Source of the DNA: a virus
Taxonomy: Duplodnaviria; Caudoviricetes
Strand: one strand, 5' to 3'
Virus record (IMG/VR): IMGVR_UViG_3300031992_000029
Location: 73,482-137,481 of that record
DNA: 64,000 bases
Both the position numbers and the translations under genes were made by a program. Shown here piece by piece: positions 31,557 through 58,694 of this stretch. How positions within the stretch are numbered: the stretch's first letter is position 1; every line of letters begins with the position of its first letter. The notes under the pieces were generated by a model that did not search any database, was not told where the DNA came from, and worked only from the letters and a program-made list of their open reading frames with translations.

Positions 31557-32066
31557 TCAAATATATGTAACCTTGACTCCATACTTCGCATCTTTAGGAT
31601 TAGAATCGTTGTACACACCTGCCAACAGAAGATGATATTGCTCACGATACCATTCCATCTTATCCTTGTATTCGTTTCTCTCCGAAATAATCTTATCGTA
31701 TTTGTGTTCAATTTCATCAGGTAAAGAGCTAGCTGGTTTTGACCACGACCACAAGTTGGGCCAGCCGCCACTCCTGTCAAAGCACTTGCGCTTCCACTCT
31801 CTCACCTTCCTGCCAAGCGAATCACACTCACCTGTAAGACGCTCTACTTCCTTCGTAAGCCTTTTATTTTCGCCCTCAAGACTAGAGACCATCTTATCAT
31901 ACATATCTTTTTGATTTGAGAGCTCAGATACGATCCTGTCAGAATACTCCTCGTCAACCTCATTCAGACATCTAAGAAGCGTCGTACAGAATTCACGCAC
32001 ACTTGCATCTCTGGAACTGCATGCAAGACCTGCAAGTTTTCTTCTCATTTCATCAGTTTTATTCAT
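31557..32066 (-). CDS. Coiled-coil hypothetical protein
   Basis: Heptad pattern. Confidence 0.65.
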   Translation of the reverse strand: MNKTDEMRRKLAGLACSSRDASVREFCTTLLRCLNEVDEEYSDRIVSELSNQKDMYDKMVSSLEGENKRLTKEVERLTGECDSLGRKVREWKRKCFDRSGGWPNLWSWSKPASSLPDEIEHKYDKIISERNEYKDKMEWYREQYHLLLAGVYNDSNPKDAKYGVKVTYI

Positions 32067-32338
32067 GTTAAACTCCCTCCTATTATATATCCAATATCGA
32101 CTAGCTCTATATCCTCATCATCGTCGCACGTCGTAATCCACTTCTCAGCAACCCATGTATTATCGTCATCAATTTCGTAATACCAATTCCTTGTCTGATC
32201 GTCGGACAAGAGACTAACAATTTCTGTAATACGATGTGTGATGGTGTTGTCAATGCGGTTATATAGATATTTACATTTAGGAGGTATACATACAGTGACT
32301 ATATCGCCGACATTAAATTTATTCATATTTACCACCAT
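32063..32338 (-). CDS. KOW/SH3-like protein with acidic tail (dispersed)
   Basis: KFNVGDIV...DEDIELVDIGYII. Confidence 0.75.
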   Translation of the reverse strand: MVVNMNKFNVGDIVTVCIPPKCKYLYNRIDNTITHRITEIVSLLSDDQTRNWYYEIDDDNTWVAEKWITTCDDDEDIELVDIGYIIGGSLT

Positions 32339-34530: not shown

Positions 34531-34926
34531 TCATGATATCACATTGGAAATCCTGCGGATAATACCCTTGTCTGGAATGAATTCATCGTATCCATTCTCA
34601 AACTTGAGATATTTTACTCCGACAGGAGAATACTCTTTTGTCCATCCTGTGTCTGCATAGAACTCAATGAAGTCCTGGATATCTTCAATATCGTCCCATG
34701 TTGCAGATCTCATATCTGGATATGAATCAAGATCGAGATTTGAACATGTGAAATGCACAATCCTCTTATCCTTGTAGTCGATCTCGGATTCCACATCTTC
34801 GAAATCAAATCCATATGTATCTCCGGCATTTGTAATAATTTCATATCCGCCTGGCCTGCAGTCGACCTCGTCGTCTTCGATTTTCCTGTCAAAGATTAAT
34901 CCGAACTTCATGCATAATCCGATCAT
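34531..34926 (-). CDS. Hypothetical protein
   Basis: Overlaps the ATPase stop codon. Confidence 0.7.
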   Translation of the reverse strand: MIGLCMKFGLIFDRKIEDDEVDCRPGGYEIITNAGDTYGFDFEDVESEIDYKDKRIVHFTCSNLDLDSYPDMRSATWDDIEDIQDFIEFYADTGWTKEYSPVGVKYLKFENGYDEFIPDKGIIRRISNVIS

Positions 34927-36086
34927 ACGATATACCTCCTCACCTCATCATCACTCCATCTCGGAATTTTCTTAACTGAGATATCAATAACGCTCAGGTC
35001 TTTCATGTCTTTGTCGTCGTCGTAACAGTCGCCTCTACGACCGCTGTTACCATACGAAGACTTGAGAAGAAGTGCGATGCGATCCTTATCCACAGTAAGC
35101 GAGCCATCATCAGAAACGGAAACCGATGTAGACGGTACGCAAATACGAATATAATCCCTTCCGCCCGCTTCATTCGGTTCAGGTGCGATTAATTCTGTGT
35201 TTGTATAATCTGTTTCATCGTAAATATCTACGTTAAACTCGCCGGAATAATTGCTTCCGTCAGAAAGAGTTACAGATGCCTTCAGTCTGATGTCATCTTC
35301 CCTTGTAATGTTCATATCTTCAAGGCATTCTTCAAGGCTATAACCCTGATTGAGCTCGAAGACGAGAGCTCTGAGGATATCATAGTTGATATCAGAGACG
35401 GCAGAGAGCCTGATTACCCCGTCAATCTGTGAATAAAATTCAGGTTTTAATTTATCGGTAAGATACTCTCTGATTTCCTCTACTGAAGGATTTCCAAGGC
35501 TAAAATGATAATGGAATCTGCCGGGCCTATTCTTGAAGTATGTAGAAATCTTGTAGAGTTCGTTACAGGTGATAACGAACATCTTTTTCCCGCTGTCAAT
35601 TCCGTCGAAGAGCGGAAGCAGTTCGTCCTGAATACTCGATCTCTCTCCGTCATCATCGTCTGACCTCCCGTTCGAGAATGTCTTATCGAACTCATCGAAG
35701 ATGACAACAGCCTCCTGGTCGATAGATGAAATAAATCCAGCGATACCGGAGATCGCTCTTGACACAACGATTACAGGATATCCTCTCTTCACGCTTTCAA
35801 CCGCCAACATCTTAGCGAAGAGGGACTTACCGATACCTTTCTTACCAGAAAGAATAATACCGAAGTTCCTATCTGTCGCCTCGAATGACCTGAGCGCCTT
35901 TTCAACCTTCTTGTATCTGTCACCATAGATCTTCTCTTCTTTAACCTCAAGGTCAGTCCTTGAAGAGAGCGAGAATCCTGACATAGGGTTGAATTCCACC
36001 TCGTACGAGCCAGCAGGTAGCTTGTCGTATGTACGAAGTTCGTCGCCGTAAATCTGGTACCTTCCACCAGAGCACACAATGTTCAT
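34923..36086 (-). CDS. AAA+ ATPase
   Basis: GKKGIGKS, VIFDEFDK, ITCN, NRPGRFHY. Confidence 0.9.
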   Translation of the reverse strand: MNIVCSGGRYQIYGDELRTYDKLPAGSYEVEFNPMSGFSLSSRTDLEVKEEKIYGDRYKKVEKALRSFEATDRNFGIILSGKKGIGKSLFAKMLAVESVKRGYPVIVVSRAISGIAGFISSIDQEAVVIFDEFDKTFSNGRSDDDDGERSSIQDELLPLFDGIDSGKKMFVITCNELYKISTYFKNRPGRFHYHFSLGNPSVEEIREYLTDKLKPEFYSQIDGVIRLSAVSDINYDILRALVFELNQGYSLEECLEDMNITREDDIRLKASVTLSDGSNYSGEFNVDIYDETDYTNTELIAPEPNEAGGRDYIRICVPSTSVSVSDDGSLTVDKDRIALLLKSSYGNSGRRGDCYDDDKDMKDLSVIDISVKKIPRWSDDEVRRYIV

Positions 36087-37691: not shown

Positions 37692-37720
37692 ATTATAACA
37701 TACTTTACTTGTTTTGTCAA
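37692..37720 (-). promoter_or_regulatory. SigmaA-type promoter driving the region with ncRNA copies 1-4
   Basis: TTGACA-17-TATAAT. Confidence 0.85.
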
Positions 37721-37736
37721 CACAATTCTATACGCC

Positions 37737-38158: not shown

Positions 38159-38473
38159 TTACCACAAGCAATTAATATCGTCCGGTTTTATTTCGTCGTC
38201 TTCATGACTATACGGAACGAGCCATTCTCCGTGAAATACCCAGTCTCTATTGCTAGAGTCGTATGATTCACGGTTTTCAAACTTAACAAAATATACACGT
38301 ACACCATCAGCGTCGCTGCCAGTATCTTTGATAATCCCGCTCTTTTGAATGAGCACGTTCATACTCGGATTCCAGTATATCCCTTCTGTGTACTCTTGTC
38401 CGTTCGGGCCAACAACTAATACCTCGTCGCCGACCTTATAATTAATATTATAATCCACAATTGCTCCTCTCAT
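38159..38473 (-). CDS. KOW/SH3-like array protein
   Basis: YKVGDEV...DDEIKPDDINCLW. Confidence 0.8.
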   Translation of the reverse strand: MRGAIVDYNINYKVGDEVLVVGPNGQEYTEGIYWNPSMNVLIQKSGIIKDTGSDADGVRVYFVKFENRESYDSSNRDWVFHGEWLVPYSHEDDEIKPDDINCLW

Positions 38474-38492
38474 TGATTATAAAACTACACTT

Positions 38493-38774
38493 TTATAGTA
38501 GTTCAGACATATCGACTACATCTATGTCTTCATCCACGTCCAAATAGCCGCTTATAGACATCATATGTGGTTCAGGAACCCACGCAATCCTATCAGTAAA
38601 TTTACCATCAAGTACTCTAATAAGATAGTCAGTAATAAAATAGTTGTATTCCTGTACATCTTCGATTATCGCATCTGTAAAATCATCTAAAACCCCTGAA
38701 CCTAAACGGTTTTCAATATGAACACCTGGTTTTAGCGCTACTATTTCCCCGACTTTATATTTTGCTTTCATCAA
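38493..38774 (-). CDS. KOW/SH3-like array protein
   Basis: KYKVGEIV...EDIDVVDMSELL. Confidence 0.8.
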   Translation of the reverse strand: MMKAKYKVGEIVALKPGVHIENRLGSGVLDDFTDAIIEDVQEYNYFITDYLIRVLDGKFTDRIAWVPEPHMMSISGYLDVDEDIDVVDMSELL

Positions 38775-38789
38775 TCGGCTCCTTTCGTG

Positions 38790-39023
38790 TCATAAAAGAA
38801 GATCAATATCTTCAGGCGTTATATTTTCGTCTTCAAAGATATCTCTAAGTAGGTTTTCGTTACATAGCCAATTACCAGAATCGTCATCGAAAGAAATCCA
38901 ATAGATTGGATATATACTGTGCAGCGTGTCAATACTAACGATCGTACATCTCCTGCCATGAAACCTTGCATTGTCTCCGACGAAGACCGCACAATCGCCA
39001 GGTTTATACTTATTATTTGGCAT
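38790..39023 (-). CDS. KOW/SH3-like array protein
   Basis: KYKPGD...ENITPEDIDLLL. Confidence 0.8.
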   Translation of the reverse strand: MPNNKYKPGDCAVFVGDNARFHGRRCTIVSIDTLHSIYPIYWISFDDDSGNWLCNENLLRDIFEDENITPEDIDLLL

Positions 39024-39033
39024 GTAAAGTCTA

Positions 39034-39324
39034 TTATCCAAGTAAAACCTCAATTCCCTCAGCGCATATATCGTCTTCTTCGTAAAACTTATCTGCATAT
39101 CCTGCGATATAATTCTCATCATAACAGACATAGTATAAACCGTTATCTTTATCAAAGCCACTTAAAAACAGATCGATGAGATAATCAGGCGCGAATGCGT
39201 TAAACTCAATCACGTCTGTTATTATTCCGGTAGTGTTATCGTCAGCACGCCTTCCGTCTTCCCCGATGGTAGTACCTGGTTTTATTTTGATGATATCACC
39301 AACCTTATATTTTGCTTTTCTCAT
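39034..39324 (-). CDS. KOW/SH3-like array protein
   Basis: KYKVGDII...DDICAEGIEVLLG. Confidence 0.8.
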   Translation of the reverse strand: MRKAKYKVGDIIKIKPGTTIGEDGRRADDNTTGIITDVIEFNAFAPDYLIDLFLSGFDKDNGLYYVCYDENYIAGYADKFYEEDDICAEGIEVLLG

Positions 39325-39345
39325 ATTAACTAACACCCTCCACAT

Positions 39346-39642
39346 TCAAAGAAGAAAACAAATTTCCTCTGCATGTATATCCTCTTCTTTATAAAATTTA
39401 TCTGCATATCCAACGATATAGCGTTCGTCAAAGTATTGATAATACGAATCACAATCGACTTCGAGAGGACCATTTAGAGATAGATCAATGCCATAGTCAG
39501 GGTCAAGTGTAGAACAATTGTATTCAAATACATCTGTTATTACACCAAAAGTATTATCGTCAGACTTCTTTTTGTACTTGCTAATGGAAACACCTTGTCT
39601 TATTTGAACAACATCACCGACTTTATATTTTGCTTTTCCCAT
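39346..39642 (-). CDS. KOW/SH3-like array protein
   Basis: KYKVGDVV...EDIHAEEICFLL. Confidence 0.8.
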   Translation of the reverse strand: MGKAKYKVGDVVQIRQGVSISKYKKKSDDNTFGVITDVFEYNCSTLDPDYGIDLSLNGPLEVDCDSYYQYFDERYIVGYADKFYKEEDIHAEEICFLL

Positions 39643-39643
39643 A

Positions 39644-40033
39644 TTATCTGTGCCCCTCGCATTCAAAAAGAAAATTTATTTCCTCAGTGCAGATATCATC
39701 ATCGTTAAAAAACCTACCTCTACGCTCGGCAATATCATCCTGGTTGAAACGACGGTAATATAAAGATCTGTTATCTTCATCGCTAAGAAATAAATCAACA
39801 TAATATTCAGTGTAATTAAATTTACTGTATTCCTTTACTTCAACTACTACTCCTCTTGTATTACATCCGGCCTTCTTCCCGAGACGACCAATAGTCCTAC
39901 CTCGTTTTATTCTAACGATATCACCCACCTCGTATTTTATCATTTTACGCTTAGCCTTCCTTTCATACCGAGCGATATCACCGAATACACGTTTTGTTAT
40001 TGTTTCATAGTCCATTTCCCACCTCATCAGCAT
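39644..40033 (-). CDS. KOW/SH3-like array protein
   Basis: KYEVGDIV...DDICTEEINFLF. Confidence 0.8.
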   Translation of the reverse strand: MLMRWEMDYETITKRVFGDIARYERKAKRKMIKYEVGDIVRIKRGRTIGRLGKKAGCNTRGVVVEVKEYSKFNYTEYYVDLFLSDEDNRSLYYRRFNQDDIAERRGRFFNDDDICTEEINFLFECEGHR

Positions 40034-40284
40034 AAGATATAAGACATATCTTCTGTCTGGAAATCATCTTCCTCGAAAAACGGTTCTATATCTGTGTCAA
40101 CTCTAACATACCAGCCTTCTACCTTTCCATCAAAGTTAAACACTACATAGTCGTGATCATATAAGACACCAACAACAGTACGCCCATCTTTCATAGCTCT
40201 TTTTATATTGCTTGAAAAATCGGACAGGAACTCCATCCCGTCCTGCGTAAGAACAACCTTATCGTCATTTTTAAACACTGACAC
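40027..40284 (-). CDS. KOW/SH3-like array protein
   Basis: FKNDDKVV...DDFQTEDMSYILC. Confidence 0.8.
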   Translation of the reverse strand: MSVFKNDDKVVLTQDGMEFLSDFSSNIKRAMKDGRTVVGVLYDHDYVVFNFDGKVEGWYVRVDTDIEPFFEEDDFQTEDMSYILC

Positions 40285-40290
40285 CCCTTT

Positions 40291-40581
40291 CTATCCCGTT
40301 ATATCAAACAGAAATTCTATATTTTCAACATCAAAATCATCATGCTCATCCTCGAATCTAATCGGTGCCAACCACTCATCAACAAACCATAACGATTGCA
40401 AGTAGATATCGTCGTCTTCAAGTATGTATACAGTTCCCATGTAATATGGAACTGAGGTGCTAGCTATGACAGCTTCGTGTCCAATATATTCATCCATGAG
40501 ATCAGCAAGCCACGGCACTCCTCTTATAACTTCGTCACTCTTCTTAGGTCCAATAATCCGAACCTTTGTTCCAATCATCAT
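40291..40581 (-). CDS. KOW/SH3-like array protein
   Basis: IGTKVRI...DDFDVENIEFLF. Confidence 0.8.
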   Translation of the reverse strand: MMIGTKVRIIGPKKSDEVIRGVPWLADLMDEYIGHEAVIASTSVPYYMGTVYILEDDDIYLQSLWFVDEWLAPIRFEDEHDDFDVENIEFLFDITG

Positions 40582-40853
40582 AAAGCACCTCCAAGAAGCT
40601 CACTAATAATGGTGTCTGTTGAAACGCCTTCGTCATATTCTTCGTCTGTGCTACTGTTCATCACCGATAATTCTTCTTCGTAAAAATATAACGGCACTAG
40701 AAATTTCCTGTTATGAAACTTCACAGCATAAAGAGTATCAGCGTGTTCAAACTTATGTATCCCGCTTATAACCCCAGCCTCACCGATAAGTTGCCTTCTC
40801 GTGTTAGCACCGAAGACTCTTTCGTTAATAATCACTTCAGTTCCTACTTCCAT
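40578..40853 (-). CDS. KOW/SH3-like array protein
   Basis: EVGTEVII...acidic tail ISELLGGAL. Confidence 0.75.
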   Translation of the reverse strand: MEVGTEVIINERVFGANTRRQLIGEAGVISGIHKFEHADTLYAVKFHNRKFLVPLYFYEEELSVMNSSTDEEYDEGVSTDTIISELLGGAL

Positions 40854-40886
40854 TTTTATTACCTCCAACAATAAATATAACCGTAG

Positions 40887-40913
40887 AAAAGCACCCCGTT
40901 CCCACCGGGGTGC
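40887..40913 (-). terminator. Intrinsic terminator
   Basis: GCACCCCG-loop-CGGGGTGC followed by TTTT. Confidence 0.7.
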
Positions 40914-41060
40914 CTCTACGACGCCACTATTACACGAAAGGAGCAAAAAACAGAAAGGATATACAGCACTCTATACTAAGGCAAACACAGCGTGGCGAGA
41001 CTGTGTTAAAAGCAAAAAGTAGCCAAATCTTGCGGATTTGTCAAAGCAAAATCCAGCGAT

Positions 41061-41103
41061 TTTAGAACCTTTTAGAACCGTTTAGAACCATCAAGGTTCT
41101 AAA
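41061..41103. repeat. Three direct TTTAGAACC repeats plus one inverted copy
   Basis: TTTAGAACCT TTTAGAACCG TTTAGAACCA TCAA GGTTCTAAA. Confidence 0.75.
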
Positions 41104-41246
41104 TCAATTTTAAAATGGCTTATTTACGCCATTTTTCGGGCCTCTCCTTAAAGAACTATCAGAGGGAAACCCGGTTCCATTTCAATATAACAAGTATTGT
41201 TTCAATACTAGCCAAAAATTCAAAGTAGTCATAAAATTAATTTAAT

Positions 41247-41480
41247 TTCCAAAAGAAACAATAGAATCAGCATATGTTTTAAAGCTCAGAGATCCTGATT
41301 GTGATCAGCTGGAGGCAGCTCCTGGGATATCTGAATTGGTAGTGGCAGCTGGCTCTTGAGGGCCCAGATCCTGCTGAATTCATTCGGCGGGCGGGTCTTG
41401 CCGTTCCCACAAAGTGATACCGTCGTTTACAACTGGCGGCACAGATTAAAATCTGTAATACATTGCTATTGTTTTGGAAG
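41247..41480 (-). ncRNA. Retron-like msr-msd ncRNA copy 5
   Basis: Inverted repeat TTCCAAAA..AACAATAG.AAT, G, ACAGAT-TTTA-ATCTGT, GCCGCC-AGTTGTAAAC-GACGGT, ATCACTTTGTGG. Confidence 0.82.
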
Positions 41481-41495
41481 TTGAATAATTATTTA

Positions 41496-41732
41496 TTATA
41501 TAATACTGAATATATCTTCGATTTTTATATCCTCTTCTTCCTCTATATGACGAAGAAATTCCTCATGCAGATAAAGAGATCCAGTATCGGTTTGTATAAG
41601 ATATCTATTTCCATATTTGTTACTGTACTCCATCACGCTACCGACAATACCATTAAAATATCTATAATATACACTATCTTTTGGTACCGTGATGACAACG
41701 CATTCTCCTATATTAAATTCATGGCACATCAT
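41496..41732 (-). CDS. KOW/SH3-like array protein
   Basis: FNIGECV...EDIKIEDIFSII. Confidence 0.8.
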   Translation of the reverse strand: MMCHEFNIGECVVITVPKDSVYYRYFNGIVGSVMEYSNKYGNRYLIQTDTGSLYLHEEFLRHIEEEEDIKIEDIFSII

Positions 41733-41956
41733 ATAATACCTGACAGGTCAACAGCTTCTATATCTTCATCATCTTCTGCGAGTTCAAGATGCTTACCAGA
41801 CATTACTATTGCACAATTTTCATTTATACCTACATGAAACTGACCGAGAGCGTTAATGTAAACTACCGTTCCGACGTGACCGTTGAAACCAGCTCGCATA
41901 TCCTTGGAACCCTCTGGCATTTTTATTACAACTCTGTCACCAATTTGGAATTTCAT
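41729..41956 (-). CDS. KOW/SH3-like array protein
   Basis: KFQIGDRV...EDIEAVDLSGII. Confidence 0.8.
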   Translation of the reverse strand: MKFQIGDRVVIKMPEGSKDMRAGFNGHVGTVVYINALGQFHVGINENCAIVMSGKHLELAEDDEDIEAVDLSGII

Positions 41957-41968
41957 TTATCCCTCCAG

Positions 41969-42202
41969 TTACATAATGTTAAATAAATCTTCAGCATCTA
42001 TTTCCTCGTCAGGTTCAAGACGCTTAATACGCCTAACATATTTCACAGGCCACCAACCATTATCAGCTCCGTCAACTTTTACAAATTCACTGACCGCATC
42101 TTCTCCTGTATCTTTCACTGTGCAAATACAACCGTCGTACTTGTGGAATACACTGCGTTCTGGACATTCTATGATGACGGTATCACCTATATGAAATTTC
42201 AT
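41969..42202 (-). CDS. KOW/SH3-like array protein
   Basis: KFHIGDTV...EEIDAEDLFNIM. Confidence 0.8.
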   Translation of the reverse strand: MKFHIGDTVIIECPERSVFHKYDGCICTVKDTGEDAVSEFVKVDGADNGWWPVKYVRRIKRLEPDEEIDAEDLFNIM

Positions 42203-42212
42203 TTTTTAAACC

Positions 42213-42452
42213 TCATGACATAATGTCGCTTAAGTCAACAAGTTCTATCAGTTCATCTTGTTCTGGTTTGTAGTGTCTTACGTATCCAGGTGGCAAAAAT
42301 TTCCATTTAAACTCATCTTCCGATGAGATTTTTACCCACCCCATATTATCGATAGCTATAACTTCTTTGATAAGCCCGTTATATGATTCAACTATGCTTC
42401 CAGGTGGACATGTTATAATTACTGTATCTCCAACCTTAAAATCCCTGTCCAT
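42213..42452 (-). CDS. KOW/SH3-like array protein
   Basis: FKVGDTV...ELIELVDLSDIMS. Confidence 0.8.
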   Translation of the reverse strand: MDRDFKVGDTVIITCPPGSIVESYNGLIKEVIAIDNMGWVKISSEDEFKWKFLPPGYVRHYKPEQDELIELVDLSDIMS

Positions 42453-42462
42453 AAAACCAACC

Positions 42463-42696
42463 TCACATTATACTTGACAAATCCTGTAACTCTATCTCTT
42501 CATCTTTCTCCTCTTTTACGAGAAAGCTCGGAGGCCACCAATGTATTACTCTGCATTCGTTAAGTTTTACCCATCCCATATCGTCGATCTCAAGAACCTC
42601 GTGAGCACTACCTTCATATTCTTCTTTGAAGTCGTTATGAGATTCAAAGTTCAACGGGAATGTTATTATTACAATATCTCCTTTTTTAAATTCCAT
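42463..42696 (-). CDS. KOW/SH3-like array protein
   Basis: FKKGDIV...EEIELQDLSSIM. Confidence 0.8.
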   Translation of the reverse strand: MEFKKGDIVIITFPLNFESHNDFKEEYEGSAHEVLEIDDMGWVKLNECRVIHWWPPSFLVKEEKDEEIELQDLSSIM

Positions 42697-42726
42697 GATA
42701 TCACCGCATGCTGAATTCGATTTCCA

Positions 42727-42972
42727 TTAGATTCCTCCGATCAGCATATTCATATCAGCCTGTTCTATGTTTTCGTCTACATTATCGCCACCGAAGTGTT
42801 CTAACCACTCGATGGGCCAAAGGCCATCATCTGTATTTGATAACGCTACGAAAGTCTCGTTAAACTTTTCAGATATTGTTGTAACTACACCATTGAATTT
42901 TTTGTAATACAGTGTGTCTTTTCTATCATCTGGTATTTTCAGTACAACCACATCGTCTTTGTTAAATACCAT
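42727..42972 (-). CDS. KOW/SH3-like array protein
   Basis: FNKDDVV...ENIEQADMNMLI. Confidence 0.8.
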   Translation of the reverse strand: MVFNKDDVVVLKIPDDRKDTLYYKKFNGVVTTISEKFNETFVALSNTDDGLWPIEWLEHFGGDNVDENIEQADMNMLIGGI

Positions 42973-42987
42973 ATACGCCTCCTAATA

Positions 42988-43245
42988 TCAGAACAGGAAT
43001 GATATATCTTGTGGATGAATATTCTCTTCGACATCGTCTCCTGTTCGTACTGGTTCGAGCCAATCCTGGTTGAATAACCAGCCTTTATACCTGACATAAC
43101 CGGTGTCGTCATTGACAAAATCAATTTTAAATGTGCATCCGTCCAAACTATCCATTGAAGAAACCCAGCGAGGCATATCGTATATATGATCACCGCTTGG
43201 TTTCCTAATGGTAACTTTGTCTCCTACATTAAACTTAAAACGCAT
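42988..43245 (-). CDS. KOW/SH3-like array protein
   Basis: FNVGDKV...ENIHPQDISFLF. Confidence 0.8.
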   Translation of the reverse strand: MRFKFNVGDKVTIRKPSGDHIYDMPRWVSSMDSLDGCTFKIDFVNDDTGYVRYKGWLFNQDWLEPVRTGDDVEENIHPQDISFLF

Positions 43246-43258
43246 TACAACCTCTTTC

Positions 43259-43549
43259 TTAAGCATAAAGCATATCCAGTTCTGTTGCTGCTATACTTTC
43301 CTCCACCTCATCCTCGTATTGCCTGGAGATAAGAGTAAGCCAGTCCTCGGCAAACCAATATCCATGATACCAGATATCATGACCGTCGATATTGGAGTAT
43401 AATTCTTCGGTGATCTCGAATATTTCACCATCGAAATCATCCATGTCTTCGTACCATCCAGGTCCGACATTTTCTATTTCGTCACGGTCGCCATCAGGCA
43501 TATTAATCCTGACGATATCGCCAACCTGAAATTGAAATTTCCGTTTCAT
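43259..43549 (-). CDS. KOW/SH3-like array protein
   Basis: FQVGDIV...ESIAATELDMLYA. Confidence 0.8.
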   Translation of the reverse strand: MKRKFQFQVGDIVRINMPDGDRDEIENVGPGWYEDMDDFDGEIFEITEELYSNIDGHDIWYHGYWFAEDWLTLISRQYEDEVEESIAATELDMLYA

Positions 43550-43558
43550 AATCCTCCT

Positions 43559-43768
43559 TTACAACATTGCCAGGATATCTTCCGGTGAGATATCATCGTC
43601 TGCATCATTCATTTCATCTGGAATAATAGCAACGATCGGAGACTCGATAATAAATTCTTCAGCTGTGCACATACCAACAAACCAATCATCCCCATCATGA
43701 TAGTATTTCGGTTCGTTTGTAGCCTGTCGTATTCTGCAAAGTAATTCATCGACATCTATAAGTCTCAT
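43559..43768 (-). CDS. Unrelated (MRLID-type) protein carrying the array's acidic tail
   Basis: MRLIDVDEL...DDISPEDILAML. Confidence 0.75.
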   Translation of the reverse strand: MRLIDVDELLCRIRQATNEPKYYHDGDDWFVGMCTAEEFIIESPIVAIIPDEMNDADDDISPEDILAML

Positions 43769-43776
43769 AATTCACC

Positions 43777-44010
43777 TCAAAATAAAATGGATAAATCCTG
43801 AACGTTGATTTCTTCCTCATTTCCATCGCTGTAAAAATCGATCCATTCTAAGTACGTTCTGAATGTCTCACTGGCCCATTTTCCTCTATCTTTGGTTTCT
43901 AAATCAACCGTATCCCCGTCTATTTTGGTTATATATCCAACGAAGCCAGGTCTATAGGATGTTTCATTAACTACTACTACAACGTCTCCTACGTGAAATT
44001 TACATTTCAT
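43777..44010 (-). CDS. KOW/SH3-like array protein
   Basis: KFHVGDVV...EEINVQDLSILF. Confidence 0.8.
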   Translation of the reverse strand: MKCKFHVGDVVVVVNETSYRPGFVGYITKIDGDTVDLETKDRGKWASETFRTYLEWIDFYSDGNEEEINVQDLSILF

Positions 44011-44018
44011 AATGCCTC

Positions 44019-44258
44019 CTACTCGAAAAGAGCCTGCAGGTCTTCGCTCTCGAAGTTATCTTCGTCGTAAACCTGTTCTAACCACACCTTACTAAAATAA
44101 AGGTCTCCGAACCCGTCAATCTTTACATCATAATCGTCGGCATAGATGATCTTACCGCTCTTGCCGAGATACTTTTTCATGCCGCTTAACCACATCAGAC
44201 TAGATCTCAAATGAGGTTTGGGCCCTACAAGTTTAACTACATCGCCAACGTCAAACAT
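44019..44258 (-). CDS. KOW/SH3-like array protein
   Basis: FDVGDVV...DNFESEDLQALFE. Confidence 0.8.
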   Translation of the reverse strand: MFDVGDVVKLVGPKPHLRSSLMWLSGMKKYLGKSGKIIYADDYDVKIDGFGDLYFSKVWLEQVYDEDNFESEDLQALFE

Positions 44259-44267
44259 ATTCCCTCC

Positions 44268-44498
44268 TTAATACAGGATTGATAAATCCTGTGCTTCAAA
44301 ACTGTCATCGGTATGGAACGGTTTAAGCCACGATACATGTGCGAGGCACTGTTTATGTCTTGCATTGCAATTTTCTAATCTTACGAAATTTCCGCCAGAT
44401 GACTTCCTGGTTATCACCCCAACGTACCCGTTACTTTTGAAACTGAAATCGTTTGGTTTATTAATTATTACAACATCGCCTATGCAAAACTTCCCCAT
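44268..44498 (-). CDS. KOW/SH3-like array protein
   Basis: FCIGDVV...DSFEAQDLSILY. Confidence 0.8.
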   Translation of the reverse strand: MGKFCIGDVVIINKPNDFSFKSNGYVGVITRKSSGGNFVRLENCNARHKQCLAHVSWLKPFHTDDSFEAQDLSILY

Positions 44499-44519
44499 AC
44501 CACACCTCGCCTTCTTATT

Positions 44520-44825
44520 TTAAACACTAAATAACTCGGAGATATCTTCTACATCTATCGACTCATCTTCTTCATATTTTTCGAACCATTTAACTGGTAA
44601 AAATGCATCAGCCATGAATTCCTCAGACCATATTGCGTCGTCTAGTCCGTATCCTCTTTTTCTTACTTCTGAGACAGTCATGATACTTCCGGCATGAATA
44701 TCATCACTTACAAATTTCATGTCATGTAATAGATCTATGACATGTTGTGGTGCTACAAGTACTACCTTATCTCCTGGTGCGACAAGTGCTACCTCTCCTG
44801 CGTGAAATTTATGTTTTGTTTCCAT
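44520..44825 (-). CDS. KOW/SH3-like array protein
   Basis: PGDKVV...ESIDVEDISELFSV. Confidence 0.8.
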   Translation of the reverse strand: METKHKFHAGEVALVAPGDKVVLVAPQHVIDLLHDMKFVSDDIHAGSIMTVSEVRKRGYGLDDAIWSEEFMADAFLPVKWFEKYEEDESIDVEDISELFSV

Positions 44826-44829
44826 TTTG

Positions 44830-45081
44830 TTACCATATACATGAGATGTCCGTTTTATCAAATACCTCTTCTGTCTCTTCTTTTACGAGCTGAAGCCAAT
44901 TGATATTGAAGAAAGAAAACGAATCATCGTTACTAAGCAAGGCGGTGTTATCGCCAAAGACATCAAATACAATAAAAATTTTCCCATCGTACTTATCCAT
45001 ATCTGCAACCCATATTGGATGTTCCCAAACATCTAGTGGTTTATGAACTACAACAACATCGCCTTTAGATATCTTACTCAT
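44830..45081 (-). CDS. KOW/SH3-like array protein
   Basis: SKGDVV...EVFDKTDISCIW. Confidence 0.8.
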   Translation of the reverse strand: MSKISKGDVVVVHKPLDVWEHPIWVADMDKYDGKIFIVFDVFGDNTALLSNDDSFSFFNINWLQLVKEETEEVFDKTDISCIW

Positions 45082-45337
45082 ACAAATCTCCGATTTCTGT
45101 ATCAAATTCGTCATCATGATGTGTTGCTGATGTAGCGAGTGACAGCCATGTCCGATGGAACGCGAGGTGCTCGTTTATGTCAAGCACATAGAATCCATGT
45201 TTTAGACTGAATATCTTTGTAACAAATGTAACGGCGTTATCATACGATTCATATTCCTTTCTGGCTGCACTGCTTACTTCGTCAGGGATTTTAATTACCA
45301 CCTCATCCCCAACCATTAATTCATCTTTTCCGTCCAT
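45074..45337 (-). CDS. KOW/SH3-like array protein
   Basis: MVGDEVV...DEFDTEIGDLYE. Confidence 0.8.
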   Translation of the reverse strand: MDGKDELMVGDEVVIKIPDEVSSAARKEYESYDNAVTFVTKIFSLKHGFYVLDINEHLAFHRTWLSLATSATHHDDEFDTEIGDLYE

Positions 45338-45346
45338 GTTGCCTCC

Positions 45347-45577
45347 CTAAAGAGCCAAGAAATCCTCTGGTTTTATATCTTCATCCTCTTCGTATGGTTC
45401 AAGCCACTCCTCATCCAGAAAGTTGGCACATTTGTCAAGTAAATACCAGTTTTTTATGCAGCCAACATATTCGACTCTACCAACGATACCGAAATAACTT
45501 TCCTTGCTTCCCATTTTTTCCTTTGGACCACACACATGGACTATGTCGCCTTTCTTGTATTTATGATGCATTACCAC
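45347..45577 (-). CDS. KOW/SH3-like array protein
   Basis: YKKGDIV...EDIKPEDFLAL. Confidence 0.8.
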   Translation of the reverse strand: MVMHHKYKKGDIVHVCGPKEKMGSKESYFGIVGRVEYVGCIKNWYLLDKCANFLDEEWLEPYEEDEDIKPEDFLAL

Positions 45578-45873
45578 AAACCTCCGATATCGCAGGCCGT
45601 GATTTCCTCGTCACCGAAGGCGTCTGTATATGGGACAAGCCACTGCTCATCGAATGACCACATGATACACTCGATTCTTGACTCAGCTATTTTTCCGTCT
45701 ACCAAGAGCCGGCATGTGAAGCATGAATCGTTGAATTCAGATTCACTATTTACAATACCATGCTTTCCGATATATTCATCCATTTGTGGATTCCAGTACA
45801 AAGGCGACGTTACACCGTTCGGACCGACAATAATAACCTCGTCGCCCTTTCTAAATCTTCTCTCTCTGTCCAT
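45571..45873 (-). CDS. KOW/SH3-like array protein
   Basis: FRKGDEV...EEITACDIGGLW. Confidence 0.8.
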   Translation of the reverse strand: MDRERRFRKGDEVIIVGPNGVTSPLYWNPQMDEYIGKHGIVNSESEFNDSCFTCRLLVDGKIAESRIECIMWSFDEQWLVPYTDAFGDEEITACDIGGLW

Positions 45874-45874
45874 G

Positions 45875-46144
45875 TTAGCCCCCTATGATCGAAGATAAAT
45901 CTTCGATTTCAAACTCATCATCTACGCATTCACTGACATGTCTGACCCATCTTTTGTCGTAGTAGAAATCGACATACGCGGGTATATATTTATTGGGTTT
46001 AATCTTGACCGTTAATTCTGACACACTCGATATAGTTCCTACCATATCGACATAAGGTTCCATGCTAGGCAACCAACTGACTCCAATTGACTGCTCACCT
46101 TCGGTCGGGCCAACTAGTATAACATTGTCTCCTATACTAAACAT
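45875..46144 (-). CDS. KOW/SH3-like array protein
   Basis: FSIGDNV...DEFEIEDLSSII. Confidence 0.8.
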   Translation of the reverse strand: MFSIGDNVILVGPTEGEQSIGVSWLPSMEPYVDMVGTISSVSELTVKIKPNKYIPAYVDFYYDKRWVRHVSECVDDEFEIEDLSSIIGG

Positions 46145-46353
46145 GTTAAATCCTCCACGATTATCTCGCACTCTTCAATAGGTTTAAGCCATGTGTCTAG
46201 GAATATGAATTTAGATTCCTCTAAGCGTACTCCTATTCCTGATACGGAAGATACGATCATTGTCTTTCCGACGAACCTGTTCATGGATTTTACCCATCCA
46301 TTTGTTTCTGATTGTGGCCCGATGACTTTTACCATATCTCCTACATTAAGCAT
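46132..46353 (-). CDS. KOW/SH3-like array protein
   Basis: LNVGDMV...EIIVEDLTCLV. Confidence 0.8.
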   Translation of the reverse strand: MLNVGDMVKVIGPQSETNGWVKSMNRFVGKTMIVSSVSGIGVRLEESKFIFLDTWLKPIEECEIIVEDLTCLV

Positions 46354-46586
46354 CTCAGATCCTCTGCCTCAAAATCGTCTTCAGCTATAGGGGATAGCCA
46401 ACTTTCACCATATGACCAAACCTGACCAACCATTTCATATGCCTTTCCTTTACGATAAACCCTCGATATACACTGTATAGTTCTATCGTACCTATCCATA
46501 TTCGAAACCCACGTCGGTTCGTCTGGGAAGTTTTTAACACCATTTTCAGGCTTATGAATGATTACCATATCTCCTACATTAAACAT
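46341..46586 (-). CDS. KOW/SH3-like array protein
   Basis: FNVGDMV...DDFEAEDLRCLM. Confidence 0.8.
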   Translation of the reverse strand: MFNVGDMVIIHKPENGVKNFPDEPTWVSNMDRYDRTIQCISRVYRKGKAYEMVGQVWSYGESWLSPIAEDDFEAEDLRCLM

Positions 46587-46828
46587 GATATATCCTCCGT
46601 CTCAAATTCTTCCTCGGGTTCGGGTACGTGGGATAACCAGCTTGAGCCATAAGTCCATATCTGATTAGCCAGCTCTATCCATTTCCCATCGTTGTAGATA
46701 TACGAGATGCGCTGTTCTGTTCCGTCGTATTTATCCATACTTGAAACCCACATCGGTTCGTCTGGGAAATTTCTAAAACCATGCTCGGGTTTATGAACGA
46801 TTACTCTATCTCCTACATTAAATTCCAT
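46574..46828 (-). CDS. KOW/SH3-like array protein
   Basis: FNVGDRV...EEFETEDISCLM. Confidence 0.8.
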   Translation of the reverse strand: MEFNVGDRVIVHKPEHGFRNFPDEPMWVSSMDKYDGTEQRISYIYNDGKWIELANQIWTYGSSWLSHVPEPEEEFETEDISCLM

Positions 46829-47049
46829 ATATCCTCCGTTGAGAATTCTTCATCCTCTTCGACATGAGATATCCAATCTGTAACAAAAAGTACTCCGTCG
46901 CATTCGTCGAGAGACACTATGCCGGAGCTGTTAATGTCCTTGATCGTTGTGATCATTCCCAAATATTTATCCCTGGTTGACCACAAGTAATCATATGCTC
47001 CACTTCCATCAGGTCCAGTTATTTCAACGACGTCACCTACATCAAACAT
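46813..47049 (-). CDS. KOW/SH3-like array protein
   Basis: FDVGDVV...EEFSTEDIWNLM. Confidence 0.8.
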   Translation of the reverse strand: MFDVGDVVEITGPDGSGAYDYLWSTRDKYLGMITTIKDINSSGIVSLDECDGVLFVTDWISHVEEDEEFSTEDIWNLM

Positions 47050-47285
47050 AATATATCCTCCGTGTCGAAATATTCCTCCTCCTCTTCGTGAAGGAGTTCG
47101 ATCCATCTTACGCTGAAGTACCACGGGATACCTTCAAGATGGACAGTTTTCCCGCTTCCGCTTACGCTTGATATTTTGAATGTTTTGTTATCATACCTAT
47201 CCATCGGGTTGACCCATCCTGGTTCATCATGTCTTATTGCCGAAGGCTTGTGCACAATAACAGTGTCTCCAGCTTTGTATTTCAC
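47037..47285 (-). CDS. KOW/SH3-like array protein (first of the array, GTGA overlap with the RT stop)
   Basis: KYKAGDTV...EYFDTEDILCLM. Confidence 0.8.
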   Translation of the reverse strand: MKYKAGDTVIVHKPSAIRHDEPGWVNPMDRYDNKTFKISSVSGSGKTVHLEGIPWYFSVRWIELLHEEEEEYFDTEDILCLM

Positions 47286-48463
47286 GACACAGACACACCA
47301 CCTCTCAGATCGTTTTTGATCTCAGATACGATATCCATGTTGAACTTCTTACTGAGATGTTCAACAAGTGCGCTGATAGACTCTCTCTCTATCATCATGT
47401 AGTAGCTACGATGACCTTCGAGAACCTGGACATCGTGGAAATCCCACTGGATTCCATTCCTTTTGTCCATTGCGTAGTTCGACAGCATTGCCGTGAACTG
47501 CTTTCTTCTCTTGTGTCCGATAGTGATCTCGTTGTTTGCGTTAAGCATAACGCCGAGATTCCAATTAGAACCTGCGGAAGAACCGTAGCGTGTTTTCTTC
47601 GACTTGATCGTGAACGGTGCGTCGAAGCTGGAGAGTGTATCTACGATGAACGCCTCGGCTTCCTTGTAGTTGAAATCGTATCTACACGATACAAGAAAGT
47701 CGTCTGCGTACCTTGTGTATACACAGTAATTTTCCACTTCGTTCCCATCTTTATCATGATATTTGAAGTTTCTGAACCCGTTGTAGAGTTTGAAGTCAAC
47801 GGGTATCATAATAATGTTAGTGATAATGGGGCTGATTGGGGTTCCCTGAGGGAGTCCACCGTCAAGGAATGCCAGCTCAAGAGCCTTTTCAAGCTCCGCT
47901 CGCCCAACATCATCGAGACAAACCTGACTGAATGGGAAAATCCACTGAAGCATATCCATAACGTACTTCAGTGTTGTGCTGCCAAAGAAGTTAGATAAAT
48001 CAAACTTGGCAAACCATTTCGATCCATTCCTCTGGTGTCTTTTGATCGAGTCAATGGTTGACCTTTTCTTGATGTACGCAAATGCAGAAGTGTGATACAG
48101 GGCATGACAATCTTCCTCAAAGATTGCCTTCAGATTCCTGAGTGCCGCCTTAAGCTCCTCATTAGGAGCGTCGATCTTTCTGAGGCCACCTGACTTCTTA
48201 GGAATGTAGAACTCTGAATACAGTTCTTTTCTCGGAACCTTCCTGAGCTCCTCTGTCTGCTCATTGAACTGTTTCAGCTTATTTATGATGTTGTCGATAT
48301 CGACGAGGCCCTGAAATTTTTCGCCGATATATTCCACTTCGTATGTTCTTGTGTTTGTCTCGTTCGAGACATACAGCGGAACCTTTGAATCATTTCCAAA
48401 AAGAAATTCCTCAAGTGTCATCTGGTGGTATGCAGGTGACTGCGGTACAGTTACATAAAACAT
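47282..48463 (-). CDS. Retron-type reverse transcriptase
   Basis: IPKKSGGLRKIDAP, AFAYIKKRS..SIKRH (region X-like), KFDLSNFF, LPQGTPISP, YTRYADD, NLGV (VTG-like); no maturase or endonuclease domain; ncRNA directly upstream. Confidence 0.92.
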   Translation of the reverse strand: MFYVTVPQSPAYHQMTLEEFLFGNDSKVPLYVSNETNTRTYEVEYIGEKFQGLVDIDNIINKLKQFNEQTEELRKVPRKELYSEFYIPKKSGGLRKIDAPNEELKAALRNLKAIFEEDCHALYHTSAFAYIKKRSTIDSIKRHQRNGSKWFAKFDLSNFFGSTTLKYVMDMLQWIFPFSQVCLDDVGRAELEKALELAFLDGGLPQGTPISPIITNIIMIPVDFKLYNGFRNFKYHDKDGNEVENYCVYTRYADDFLVSCRYDFNYKEAEAFIVDTLSSFDAPFTIKSKKTRYGSSAGSNWNLGVMLNANNEITIGHKRRKQFTAMLSNYAMDKRNGIQWDFHDVQVLEGHRSYYMMIERESISALVEHLSKKFNMDIVSEIKNDLRGGVSVS

Positions 48464-48473
48464 CTTTTCGTCC

Positions 48474-48768
48474 TTTCGTATTCAACATACAGTTTCTGGG
48501 AGGCGCAGATCCTGGCGCCGGCCGTAACTTAAGCTCGCTGTGCTGGATGTAGTCGTCGATTGGATGTCCATCAAATATAGGAATGGTAGATATATTTGAT
48601 ATTTTCGTGGTTTGGAATTTATGGATGACGACTTCCCGAGGGCCGGCCATCCGGCGGAATCACTGGAGAGATGCATTGCCGCGTGGAGGTGGGTTCCTCT
48701 TTCCACACAAGGTGATACCGTCGTTTACAACTGACGGCACAGACAAATGTCTGTAATACAATACGATT
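48474..48768 (-). ncRNA. Retron-like msr-msd ncRNA copy 6 (cis to the RT)
   Basis: Inverted repeat TCGTATT/AATACGA, G, ACAGAC-ATTT-GTCTGT, GCCGTC-AGTTGTAAAC-GACGGT, msd hairpin GCCGGCC..GTCGTC..ATCAAATATA/TATATTTGAT..GACGAC..GGCCGGC. Confidence 0.88.
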
Positions 48769-48769: not shown

Positions 48770-48798
48770 AAAAAGCCGGGCTAAATTAATAGCCCGGC
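48770..48798 (-). terminator. Intrinsic terminator after the E1 region
   Basis: GCCGGGCTA-loop-TAGCCCGGC-TTTTT. Confidence 0.8.
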
Positions 48799-49041: not shown

Positions 49042-49725
49042 TTAGAAACACATCAGATCGCCAGCGAACCCGTCGATCTGGAGGAACTTCCAGAGCTTCT
49101 GACCCTTAACCCAGTTGATGTAGTTGTTCACGCCGAGTGCAGAGATAAGCCGAACTGTTGTGGCTACACCGAGTGTAATTCCGCAGGCGCTCACAGGAGT
49201 TTCAGCCGCCGCTTCCTCGTGTGTGAAAGCCATGGAAGCCTTGAGCGCTTCTTTCTGTTTCAGATCACTCCAATCAGCCGCATAGTGCTGGGCGGATGTG
49301 AGCAGGGTTCTGAAATCGAGCACCAGCTTTACGAACGGTGAGTTCCAGTGCTTGTCGACGATTTCATTTCTGAGCTCGATACTGTCTACTGCGAGTACGA
49401 TGATGCCGGACATCATCTTTCCCTGCCATCCTTCGGGATGGAGCTTGATCTTATCTGCGATTGCGGGATTGATTGATACAAGGATGTCGCGAAGCGCTTC
49501 GACCTTGGGCATCCCGACCTGCTCCTGCGTGAACATCTGATTGACAATGTTATGTGCTTCAACATCGTCAAAGTCCCACAGCTGGAAGTTTTCCACGCCG
49601 CACCGTGCGAGGTTCTCTGCTACGGTTGATCCTACAGAACCACATCCTACGATGTGGATTGTAGACTTTTCTTCGTCAGGGTTGAAGAATTCATATGACT
49701 TTGACAGGTCCATTACGTTGCTCAT
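49042..49725 (-). CDS. E1-like ThiF/MoeB activating enzyme
   Basis: IVGCGSVGS, WDFDDVEAHNIVNQ, GMPKV, AVDS..R, SACG (candidate catalytic Cys). Confidence 0.9.
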   Translation of the reverse strand: MSNVMDLSKSYEFFNPDEEKSTIHIVGCGSVGSTVAENLARCGVENFQLWDFDDVEAHNIVNQMFTQEQVGMPKVEALRDILVSINPAIADKIKLHPEGWQGKMMSGIIVLAVDSIELRNEIVDKHWNSPFVKLVLDFRTLLTSAQHYAADWSDLKQKEALKASMAFTHEEAAAETPVSACGITLGVATTVRLISALGVNNYINWVKGQKLWKFLQIDGFAGDLMCF

Positions 49726-57836: not shown

Positions 57837-58433
57837 TCATTCCCATTCTTTATCCTCTCTGAGTCTGAGGGTGCAGCCATCTACAACCCCGAGCTCGCAG
57901 AACGACTTGTTCATTGTCTCGTCTGTGAGCAAAAATCCTCTTTTGCCCATCAGAATGTTACACTTGAGCCCGTCCATTACAATCCCTGCGTAGTCAAGTA
58001 CCTCTTTCACCGTCTTATTCCTGTCAGTTTCTAACTTCACGCTAAGACCGTCGAAAGCGATTGTCACGTTGACGGGCCCGTTTCCGAGCATGAACACTTT
58101 CATGGAGTTCTCGAGCCACCTTTCGAGCGTCTCGTATGGTGTCCATGTGTTGCTGTCGCCGATACCGAAAATGTACTTTCCGGTATCACCGATCCCTTCT
58201 ACAGGAGTATTTCCCTCACTGGAGAGAGCAAAGAACACTCTCATTGCGTCTGCAGTTCTTATATCCGCATACCTCGCGAGGACCGGCAGATATACCCTTC
58301 TTCCCGCATCGTCATACATAAAGAGTTCCTTATAGAAAACCTCTCTGTCCTTCGTGATACTCTTCTCGTATTCCTCACACTTGCTTTTGCTACTGAATCG
58401 GCTGCCGTCTTCGGCAACATATAAAACTTTCAT
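57837..58433 (-). CDS. Protein with C-terminal Ubl-like domain
   Basis: C-terminal VNVTIAFDG...KTVKEVLDYAGI...MNKSFCELGVVDGCTLRL; N-terminal half resembles 58695-58940 and 58937-59269. Confidence 0.6.
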   Translation of the reverse strand: MKVLYVAEDGSRFSSKSKCEEYEKSITKDREVFYKELFMYDDAGRRVYLPVLARYADIRTADAMRVFFALSSEGNTPVEGIGDTGKYIFGIGDSNTWTPYETLERWLENSMKVFMLGNGPVNVTIAFDGLSVKLETDRNKTVKEVLDYAGIVMDGLKCNILMGKRGFLLTDETMNKSFCELGVVDGCTLRLREDKEWE

Positions 58434-58684: not shown

Positions 58685-58694
58685 AACGCACCTC

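Follow-up and report, generated by a model that had tools for sequence, protein, structure and literature searches.

The repeat (REP) domain of the E3 ubiquitin ligase Mind bomb is a substrate-peptide recognition module, as illustrated by the structure of MZM-REP with a Jagged1 peptide (PDB 4xi7), and its SH3-like barrel is represented in Pfam by the family SH3_15 (PF18346). Here we describe a tandem array of 32 small genes whose products are related to this domain, found in the last 64 kb of a 137,481-bp phage contig (IMG/VR record IMGVR_UViG_3300031992_000029, positions 73,482 to 137,481); this stretch of 64,000 nt is referred to below as the window. The array proteins have the same GDxV first strand and W-containing last strand as the Mind bomb domain, and about one-third of them also have its W...M..Y.G helix insert. 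Two features set them apart: the domains are encoded as separate genes of 70–100 aa, each with its own start codon and Shine–Dalgarno (SD) sequence, and not as repeats within an enzyme, and their barrel is followed by an acidic linker and a conserved C-terminal peptide, for which SH3_15 repeats have no equivalent.

SspB, which serves ClpX, and the poxvirus ankyrin/PRANC proteins, a virus-encoded multigene family, likewise join a variable binding domain through a flexible linker to a short, conserved C-terminal element by which many different proteins are docked onto a single machine. SspB in particular sets a precedent for a small barrel followed by a flexible linker and a C-terminal docking peptide. 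The likeness of both to the array is a functional analogy in architecture only, with no sequence relationship. A stand-alone small SH3-like protein is also known from a Firmicute prophage, YorP of Bacillus subtilis SPbeta (PDB 2heq), to which the model of array member 22 aligns with a Z-score of 7.5 over 72 residues; the two differ nonetheless, with a root mean square deviation of 4.2 Å and 10% identity, and we know of no array, shared tail, or function for YorP, which is to our knowledge a single gene. The GoF, MotB.1, and Frd.2 proteins of phage T4 are described by Kim et al. (2025, PMC12152347) as small LSm-like early proteins of unknown role, for which an RNA-related one is proposed. They resemble the array proteins in being small early phage proteins with an SH3/LSm-type barrel and several paralogues per phage, but the three T4 members are dissimilar, do not form a tandem array, and share no C-terminal tag, whereas the proteins described here form an array and are strongly acidic.

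The array is a real multigene family that is kept by selection. From its anatomy, its selection pattern, the portability of its C-terminal peptide, and its homology to a substrate-recognition domain, we infer that the proteins may be modular adaptors or baits, in which variable barrels would bind different targets and the shared tail would dock all of them on one putative hub. We favor this reading tentatively, at a strength that falls somewhat short of probable.

Layout and fold of the array

An earlier note on this DNA, made from the sequence alone, had described 32 consecutive small open reading frames (ORFs), and such a run is indeed present on the minus strand from 47285 down to 38159, with products of 69–104 aa when start codons are chosen to fit the alignment of the 32 members (alignment A1). 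The run falls into two blocks, all of whose genes are on the minus strand. Block 1 (members 1–23, 41496..47285) is defined by its ORFs, alignment A1, structure models of members 1 and 22, and orthologues in a sister contig (L055). Its genes lie at 47037-47285, 46813-47049, 46574-46828, and 46341-46586 (members 1–4); 46132-46353, 45875-46144, 45571-45873, and 45347-45571 (members 5–8); 45074-45337, 44830-45081, 44520-44825, and 44268-44498 (members 9–12); 44019-44258, 43777-44010, 43559-43768, and 43259-43549 (members 13–16); 42988-43245, 42727-42972, 42463-42696, and 42213-42452 (members 17–20); and 41969-42202, 41729-41956, and 41496-41732 (members 21–23). Block 2 (members 24–32, 38159..40853), defined by its ORFs and alignment A1 and containing DNA repeat families D7–D9 within 38724-39736, comprises 40578-40853, 40291-40581, 40027-40284, 39644-39943, and 39346-39642 (members 24–28), followed by 39034-39324, 38790-39023, 38493-38771, and 38159-38473 (members 29–32). 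The genes are tightly packed. Ten junctions are overlaps, 20 are gaps of at most 30 nt, one is 83 nt, and one is the 642-nt spacer that separates members 23 and 24; 8253 of the 9127 bases of the array are coding, and an SD-like sequence stands ahead of 26 of the 32 genes.

Member 1 begins with the GTG of a GTGA, the TGA of which is the stop codon of the upstream gene, encoding a retron-type reverse transcriptase (RT). This overlap, to which the earlier note had drawn attention, is kept in two relatives, as GTGA in L055 and as an ATG overlapping TGA in L054. The evidence supports a single transcription unit for the array and the RT, with member 1 translationally coupled to the RT.

Alignment A1 bears out the shared motifs that had been read from the sequence. 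An N-terminal strand with the pattern (F/Y)x(V/I)GDxVxI, whose G and V are found in at least 90% of members, is followed by a central G...I strand and then by a W(L/I) strand close to the end of the barrel, beyond which lies the acidic tail. The A1 profile recovers all 32 members, and four more dispersed in the window, with E-values of about 1e-8 to 1e-14, and a search with the same profile found no family member in the first 73 kb of the contig. The four dispersed members, each on the minus strand and each with the tail, are a 121-aa protein encoded just upstream of dnaE (11738..12103; E 7e-13, profile positions 1–83) and proteins of 93 aa (21832..22113; E 7e-8), 91 aa (32063..32338; E 4e-11), and 109 aa (58430..58759; E 3e-8). 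All 36 family genes are separate single-domain ORFs with their own starts, in different frames. With about 9 kb in the array, these 36 paralogues make up about 7% of the 137-kb genome, in keeping with the earlier remark that such an expansion is very unusual for a phage. The array proteins are strongly acidic, with a median isoelectric point of 4.4 and a net charge of −9.

The expectation of a single scaffold was examined with AlphaFold2 models of members 1 and 22, which share 19% identity with each other; both are SH3-like barrels, with mean predicted local distance difference test (pLDDT) values of 84 and 87, respectively. The best PDB match of member 1 in Foldseek is the REP domain of Mind bomb 1 (MIB1; 4tse), with a probability of 1.0 and a template modeling score of 0.60–0.64. 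For member 22, VIA-align gives Z-scores of 8.5 for 4tse and 8.0 for 4xi6/4xi7, the top match being Ssl0352/NdhS at 8.7, so that its MIB1 scores are tied with those of other small barrels (NdhS, KOW, Tudor, and SPbeta YorP). When the A1 profile is compared with PDB sequences, the top match is again the MIB1 REP domain, covering both repeats (E 2.9e-5). A search of 1.8 billion representative proteins with the profile gave 2754 relatives at E ≤0.001. The best-scoring of these are mostly multi-repeat proteins, and eight of the ten that were scanned carry SH3_15, with E-values down to 2.7e-73; in three scanned relatives, SH3_15 is accompanied by ART, RING, or PDZ domains. Single members yield no Pfam match above cut-off, the best being Tudor_5 (0.008) and SH3_2 (0.028), with SH3, Tudor, and NifZ families all below threshold. 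Because both the fold and the profile match the MIB1 REP domain, yet single members score below threshold, the family appears to be a divergent, stand-alone form of the SH3_15 barrel.

The label KOW, under which the proteins had been entered in the earlier note, does not fit. The KOW family is absent from the Pfam matches of members at E-values up to 0.1, and the KOW domains of NusG and Spt5 are lower-ranked fold matches only (Foldseek, VIA-align), a likeness at the level of the fold. Other resources are less informative: a PHROG scan of single members returned four unnamed or weak families, and the ESM Atlas returned only unnamed viral clusters, in one of which 12% of the members carry SH3_15.

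Selection and copy number

The sister contig (ENA k119_553312, L055/L056) has an identical gene order and an array of about 42 members. Between the window and L055, 26 collinear reciprocal best matches are 52–85% identical in amino acid sequence, and 11 L055 members have no orthologue in the window. In global alignments of the flanking proteins, the RT is 94% identical, the ThiF/E1-like enzyme (E1) 96%, the E2-like protein 88%, and the AAA ATPase 89%. We estimated the ratio of nonsynonymous to synonymous substitution rates (dN/dS) by the pairwise Nei–Gojobori method, which is crude. The pooled dN/dS of the 26 orthologue pairs is 0.29, with values of 0.22 for the N-terminal strand, 0.37 for the middle, and 0.15 for the tail, and the genes for the RT, E1, E2-like protein, and AAA ATPase have values of 0.03–0.10. 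The array thus evolves about five times faster at nonsynonymous sites than the neighboring enzymes, and the tail is its most constrained part. Purifying selection acts on all orthologue pairs tested, and each array copy is therefore a maintained gene. With 32 + 4 members recovered by one profile and 26 orthologue pairs under purifying selection, the array cannot be put down to chance ORFs.

The middle of the proteins had been called hypervariable. It is divergent between paralogues, but it is conserved between orthologues, which is not the behavior of a target of a diversity-generating retroelement. That such an element acts on the array was considered separately and rejected: a repeat search linked no repeat between a non-coding element and the variable parts of the genes, and the RT scores as retron-type.

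Paralogues that lie side by side resemble each other more than do those farther apart (31% against 23% identity, permutation p 0.002), indicating that the array grew by local tandem duplication. This much of an earlier claim of recent tandem duplication stands; the word recent does not. The closest paralogues, members 3 and 4 (46341-46828), are 62% identical with a dS of 1.4, and members 28 and 29 are 56% identical with a dS of 1.46; in such pairs dS is at least 1.4 and saturated, with dN/dS near 0.2. The description of the repertoire as expanding and diversifying was likewise overstated, given mostly ancient duplications (mean paralogue identity 24%) and purifying selection, although copy number does turn over, with 32 members here and about 42 in the sister contig. 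In contigs from independent metagenomes, back-joints that add a copy were seen at 46822/46593 and 45115/44967, each in two studies, and in one metagenome run the segment at 40330-40591 is replaced. The array is old and stable; its members are gained and lost slowly, and it is not a rapidly diversifying cassette.

The shared tail and its possible partners

After the barrel, an acidic linker leads to a C-terminal peptide of the approximate form (F/I)xxED(I/L)xx(L/I)(M/F/L), which is followed by 0–7 further residues. In the models of members 1 and 22, the barrel core has pLDDT values above 89 and the tail has values of 54–64; as modeled, the tail is flexible in isolation. It is also portable. Member 15 (43559..43768, minus strand, 69 aa), placed by alignment A1 and by an L055 orthologue that is 80% identical, has neither the GD motif nor the SH3 N-terminal strand but keeps the full tail DDDISPEDILAML, and the tail can therefore sit on a different body. 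When a hidden Markov model (HMM) of the tail alone was run against all genome ORFs of at least 40 aa, it found a 104-aa protein (12108..12422, minus strand) that has no match to the SH3 profile and ends in DDENIIAEDIGDLFG (E 0.0041). The adjoining gene (12419..13033, minus strand) encodes a 204-aa protein of the replication module with a tail-like end, DDIEPGNLKELL, matched by eye and not by the HMM; this protein has no Pfam or PHROG match. With these, the tail is present on at least three non-SH3 bodies in this phage. An acidic paralogue encoded in a nearby ubiquitin-like (Ubl) conjugation operon (50160-50615) ends in a looser tail-like peptide, its homologue in L037 ending in DTDLSELIPLF, and similar acidic-hydrophobic C-terminal peptides occur on further non-SH3 proteins in relatives.

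One alternative holds that the proteins are free-standing stoichiometric inhibitors or decoys of host proteins, for example in anti-defense, with one host factor per barrel. The tail would then be generic, perhaps an aid to charge or solubility, a source of DNA-mimic-like acidity, or a timed degron. The small size and marked acidity of the proteins fit this idea, as do their accessory region, the strong promoter system, the faster nonsynonymous change relative to neighboring enzymes, the turnover in copy number, and the restriction of arrays to particular lineages. A PADLOC search gave no match for the array proteins, but PADLOC covers defense and not anti-defense families. What a generic tail leaves unexplained is that the tail is the part under strongest constraint, that it has a specific hydrophobic pattern beyond its acidity, and that it recurs on unrelated bodies, all of which argue for a specific shared interaction. 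We regard free-standing inhibitors as unlikely, if still worth serious consideration.

The position of three of the tail-bearing genes raises another possibility, that the tail serves for docking on the replisome or the sliding clamp and that the family modulates host or phage replication. The genes at 12419-13033, 12108-12422, and 11738-12103 lie directly upstream of the phage dnaE, and tails such as ELDMLYA, QDISFLF, and EEINFLFE resemble the acidic-hydrophobic C-terminal clamp-binding peptides of T4 gp43, gp33, and gp55. However, the hydrophobic residues (positions 2, 5, and 6) are not spaced as in the bacterial QL(S/D)LF motif, DnaE itself lacks a tail of this kind, no phage clamp was present among the proteins scanned, and 36 clamp binders would be hard to explain. 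Nor is the tail found on the 138-aa protein encoded at 16194-16610 (minus strand), which ends in DDEGLPF, an ending distinct from the array tail that we take to be the C-terminal tip of a single-stranded DNA-binding protein and hence, presumably, of the phage's own; such an ending is ordinary. A clamp-directed role for the family appears improbable to us.

It could also be proposed that the proteins are alternative modifiers, adenylated at their C-termini by the E1-like enzyme, or virion or internal proteins that are packaged by means of the tail as an address. The C-terminus is flexible as well as conserved, a GG is found at or just before the end in a few members (6, 18, and 24), and one member has a weak PHROG match to "head decoration" (E 3.9e-4). 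Against this stand the fold, which is SH3 and not beta-grasp, and the variation of the array C-termini in both the last residue and the length beyond the motif; the true Ubl of the operon ends in KADNA. Ubiquitin-like modifiers were rejected on these grounds. The array also lies in the non-structural half of the genome, with all 36 members in the last 64 kb. Modifiers or packaged proteins are the least probable of the explanations considered.

The reading of the proteins as modular adaptors accommodates a large repertoire of binder-like proteins with a shared tail, a part of the earlier note that the analysis supports. According to this proposal, the family would have grown by local tandem duplication in the accessory region between the retron-type RT and the AAA ATPase, each protein consisting of a barrel with paralogue-specific loops, a flexible acidic linker, and the conserved C-terminal peptide. 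Each barrel would have its own protein or peptide as target, and the tail that the barrels have in common would dock them, together with the few unrelated tail-bearing phage proteins, onto one partner. Candidates for this hub are the phage Ubl-conjugation enzymes, the phage AAA ATPase, the host sliding clamp, and a host AAA+ protease.

Several points weigh against modular adaptors. The partners of the barrel and of the tail are both putative. An amphipathic helix can be read into the tail from its sequence pattern, to which AlphaFold assigns no structure. Positive selection, which might be expected of a binder repertoire engaged in an arms race, was not detected in the orthologue pairs by the crude pairwise method. 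Finally, at five or more junctions the GAGGA codons of the tail are at the same time the SD sequence of the next, overlapping gene, and part of the tail's conservation at the DNA level could stem from this role. With respect to the last point, the tail is equally conserved at non-overlapping junctions and in the dispersed members, and its conservation is therefore a feature of the protein.

Genomic setting and implications

The RT (47282..48463, minus strand) has 393 aa and is identified by matches to Pfam RVT_1 (3.5e-19) and PADLOC RT_II-A (3.6e-42); against the NCBIfam retron St85 RT, it scores 161.7 bits and does not reach the cut-off of 235. Upstream of it, about 1.8 kb from the array, is the Ubl operon, which encodes Ubl and Ubl-fusion proteins, a 488-aa E2-like protein, a JAB-like protein, two acidic paralogues, and, as its last gene, the E1 (49042..49725, minus strand; Pfam ThiF 2e-23, PADLOC E1-E2 7e-19). 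A strong hairpin resembling an intrinsic terminator (48775..48798, minus strand; 9-bp stem, 7 of its pairs GC, and then a T run) lies between this operon and the RT-array unit. On the other side, the array is followed by four small genes, a σ70-type promoter, and the gene for a classic-clade AAA ATPase of 387 aa with an RPGRF motif (34923..36086, minus strand; Pfam AAA 6e-13, phrog_2376 9e-102). The promoter (37692..37720, minus strand; repeat family D4) is a perfect match to the consensus (12/12, plus TG) and starts the next transcription unit. The ATPase closes the variable region both here and, in synteny, in a second array-bearing lineage, and it is a candidate partner of the tail.

Non-coding DNA accompanies the RT and interrupts the array. 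Between the E1 gene and the RT is a conserved hairpin element with the loop AGTTGTAAAC (48706..48768, minus strand; repeat family D11, alignment A2). As had been noticed earlier, a copy stands inside the array: the element at 41408-41470, which is 86% identical to the RT-upstream one, lies in the 642-nt gap (40854..41495, minus strand), whose predicted RNA fold has a z-score of −2.76. An Rfam scan of this gap returned chance-level matches only, and the gap is 88% identical in L055 over about 549–554 nt.

The hairpin element is found on the minus strand at five sites in all, the remaining three being 36898-36974, 36345-36421, and 34360-34436. The copies share the loop AGTTGT(A/G)AAC, their stems differ and yet still pair, each is followed by 200–550 nt of non-coding DNA, and the elements are conserved in L055. 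Just upstream of the last copy, at about 34433-34486 (minus strand), is a tRNA-like minihelix with a 7-bp acceptor stem, a T arm (GGGTTCGAATCCC), and a 3′ CCA, which neither ARAGORN nor Rfam calls.

The earlier note had suggested a search for co-occurrence of the family with this RT, and across RT homologues this is not what the relatives show: arrays stand behind the RT only in the lineage of the window and in that of L001. In 51 IMG/VR loci whose RTs are 53–63% identical to the one described here, all have an E1 and nearly all have the E2-like and JAB genes, with 0–4 family members, and eight loci in metagenome-assembled genomes (MAGs), with RTs 58–62% identical, have none. Put together, nearly all of these approximately 59 array-poor RT loci (51 viral and 8 MAG) have an E1 beside the RT, and most have E2 and JAB genes as well. 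The link between RT and array is therefore positional and not obligatory. The second lineage, with RTs about 39% identical, consists of L001 (MT835544.1) and 30 IMG/VR loci such as L062, L067, and L103. It has 5–12 small SH3-like proteins encoded between the RT and AAA genes (9511-15506 in L001), and these share a uniform tail of their own, W(T/S)DEMFE..ECxCxSLL, with two conserved cysteines. An integrase-like gene lies inside the L001 array. Among 80 loci anchored on the AAA gene, 26 have both the RT and the family, 11 the RT only, 2 the family only, and 41 neither; the loci are related to one another, and the association may be inherited synteny. In both lineages, the array occupies a conserved accessory position after the RT, and the RT/Ubl core does not need it.

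Other searches added little. Short contigs with further tail-bearing relatives (L057–L060) have small arrays and little surrounding context, a megablast of the locus against deposited phage genomes gave no match, and a locus search with member 1 alone returned a single 18-residue match that we discarded as spurious.

These distributions bear on the idea that the array proteins are retron accessory or effector proteins working with the RT and multicopy single-stranded DNA (msDNA), which the earlier note had offered as one option. The coupling of member 1 to the RT in three phages would fit such a role, as would the in-array copy of an RT-associated non-coding element and the location of arrays directly downstream of the RT in two diverged lineages. 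Arrays are missing beside most RT homologues, however, and four members, along with the tail-only proteins, are dispersed elsewhere in the genome. The strong negative charge of the proteins argues against nucleic-acid binding, and the retron effectors that we know of are single genes. A partnership with the RT or msDNA is very improbable on this evidence.

A special case of the adaptor model would make the proteins substrate receptors of the phage Ubl system, similar to E3 enzymes, in which the barrel selects a host or rival protein and the tail recruits the E2-like protein, E1, or Ubl. The array is close to the operon for all of these components, the acidic paralogue within that operon ends in a tail-like peptide (as does its L037 homologue), and Mind bomb, an E3 ligase, binds its substrates through SH3_15. 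Family matches also accompany the RT, itself beside E1, in the AAA-anchored loci, but the kinship of those loci could account for this. The terminator-like hairpin parts the Ubl operon from the RT-array unit, and the approximately 59 loci keep the RT, nearly always with E1 and mostly with the E2-like and JAB genes, yet have 0–4 members. In a complex prediction with the E2-like protein, E1, Ubl, and member 1, the scores were 0.26, 0.37, and 0.01, with a median below the mark, a result that favors neither binding nor its absence. We consider receptors of the Ubl system distinctly unlikely.

The Ubl operon has further features of its own. Its 53320-55732 segment (minus strand) consists of three copies of a 715–744-nt repeat, one of them a free Ubl gene and the other two Ubl-fusion genes. 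The KADNA C-terminus of the Ubl is found in 13 of 14 relatives, with KADGG in the other, so a terminal Gly is usually lacking. The E2-like protein (51664-53130, minus strand, 488 aa) has two internal tail-like segments, EDGISPEEMEMIEGL and EDWISAEDIEALM (tail HMM E 0.0024). The L001 homologue has a sequence like the first segment but none like the second, so both are probably just capped helices of the ordinary kind. A lone tRNA-Leu(CAA) gene lies within the operon at 53160-53232, between the Ubl and E2-like genes, and eight or nine other tRNA genes are clustered at 19375-23896.

The AAA ATPase and a 131-aa protein of unknown family (34531-34926, minus strand) are translationally coupled, and at least 245 relatives of the ATPase occur in IMG/VR phage contigs. 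The promoter ahead of its transcription unit belongs to a repeat of about 50 nt that is present in five minus-strand copies (7053-7103, 25357-25407, 33449-33499, 37681-37731, and 56673-56723). In the two copies that were scanned (37720-37692 and 56712-56684), it contains a perfect extended σ70 promoter, TTGACA and TG-TATAAT with a spacing of 17 nt. These repeats probably mark early transcription units of the phage.

Several studies of the ruminant gut (sheep, cattle, and goat) have yielded metagenomes in which the phage is present, and the MAGs with related RT loci are mostly binned as Clostridia (Oscillospiraceae and Acutalibacteraceae), with one Prevotella. The host is probably a member of the Clostridia, consistent with the strong SD sites and σ70-type promoters.

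The domain and small early SH3/LSm-like phage proteins were already known; what makes this case stand out is the size of the array (32–42 tandem copies), its coupling to a retron-type RT, and its position beside a phage Ubl-conjugation operon. We found no published description of tandem arrays of small SH3-like proteins with a shared docking-type tail. Large phages have numerous small early genes to which no role has been assigned, and a family of 36 paralogues with a portable peptide offers an unusually clear handle on them, as a single tail peptide could serve as bait for the hub, after which the barrels could be screened for targets. Should the hub of such modular adaptors be the Ubl machinery or an AAA+ machine, phages would be using modular adaptor libraries to redirect protein modification or unfolding, a strategy known from eukaryotic viruses and for which we found no phage description in the literature. 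If the proteins were receptors of the Ubl system, the array would give a bacterial virus its own equivalent of the poxvirus ankyrin/PRANC or F-box families, in one unit with a retron-type RT.

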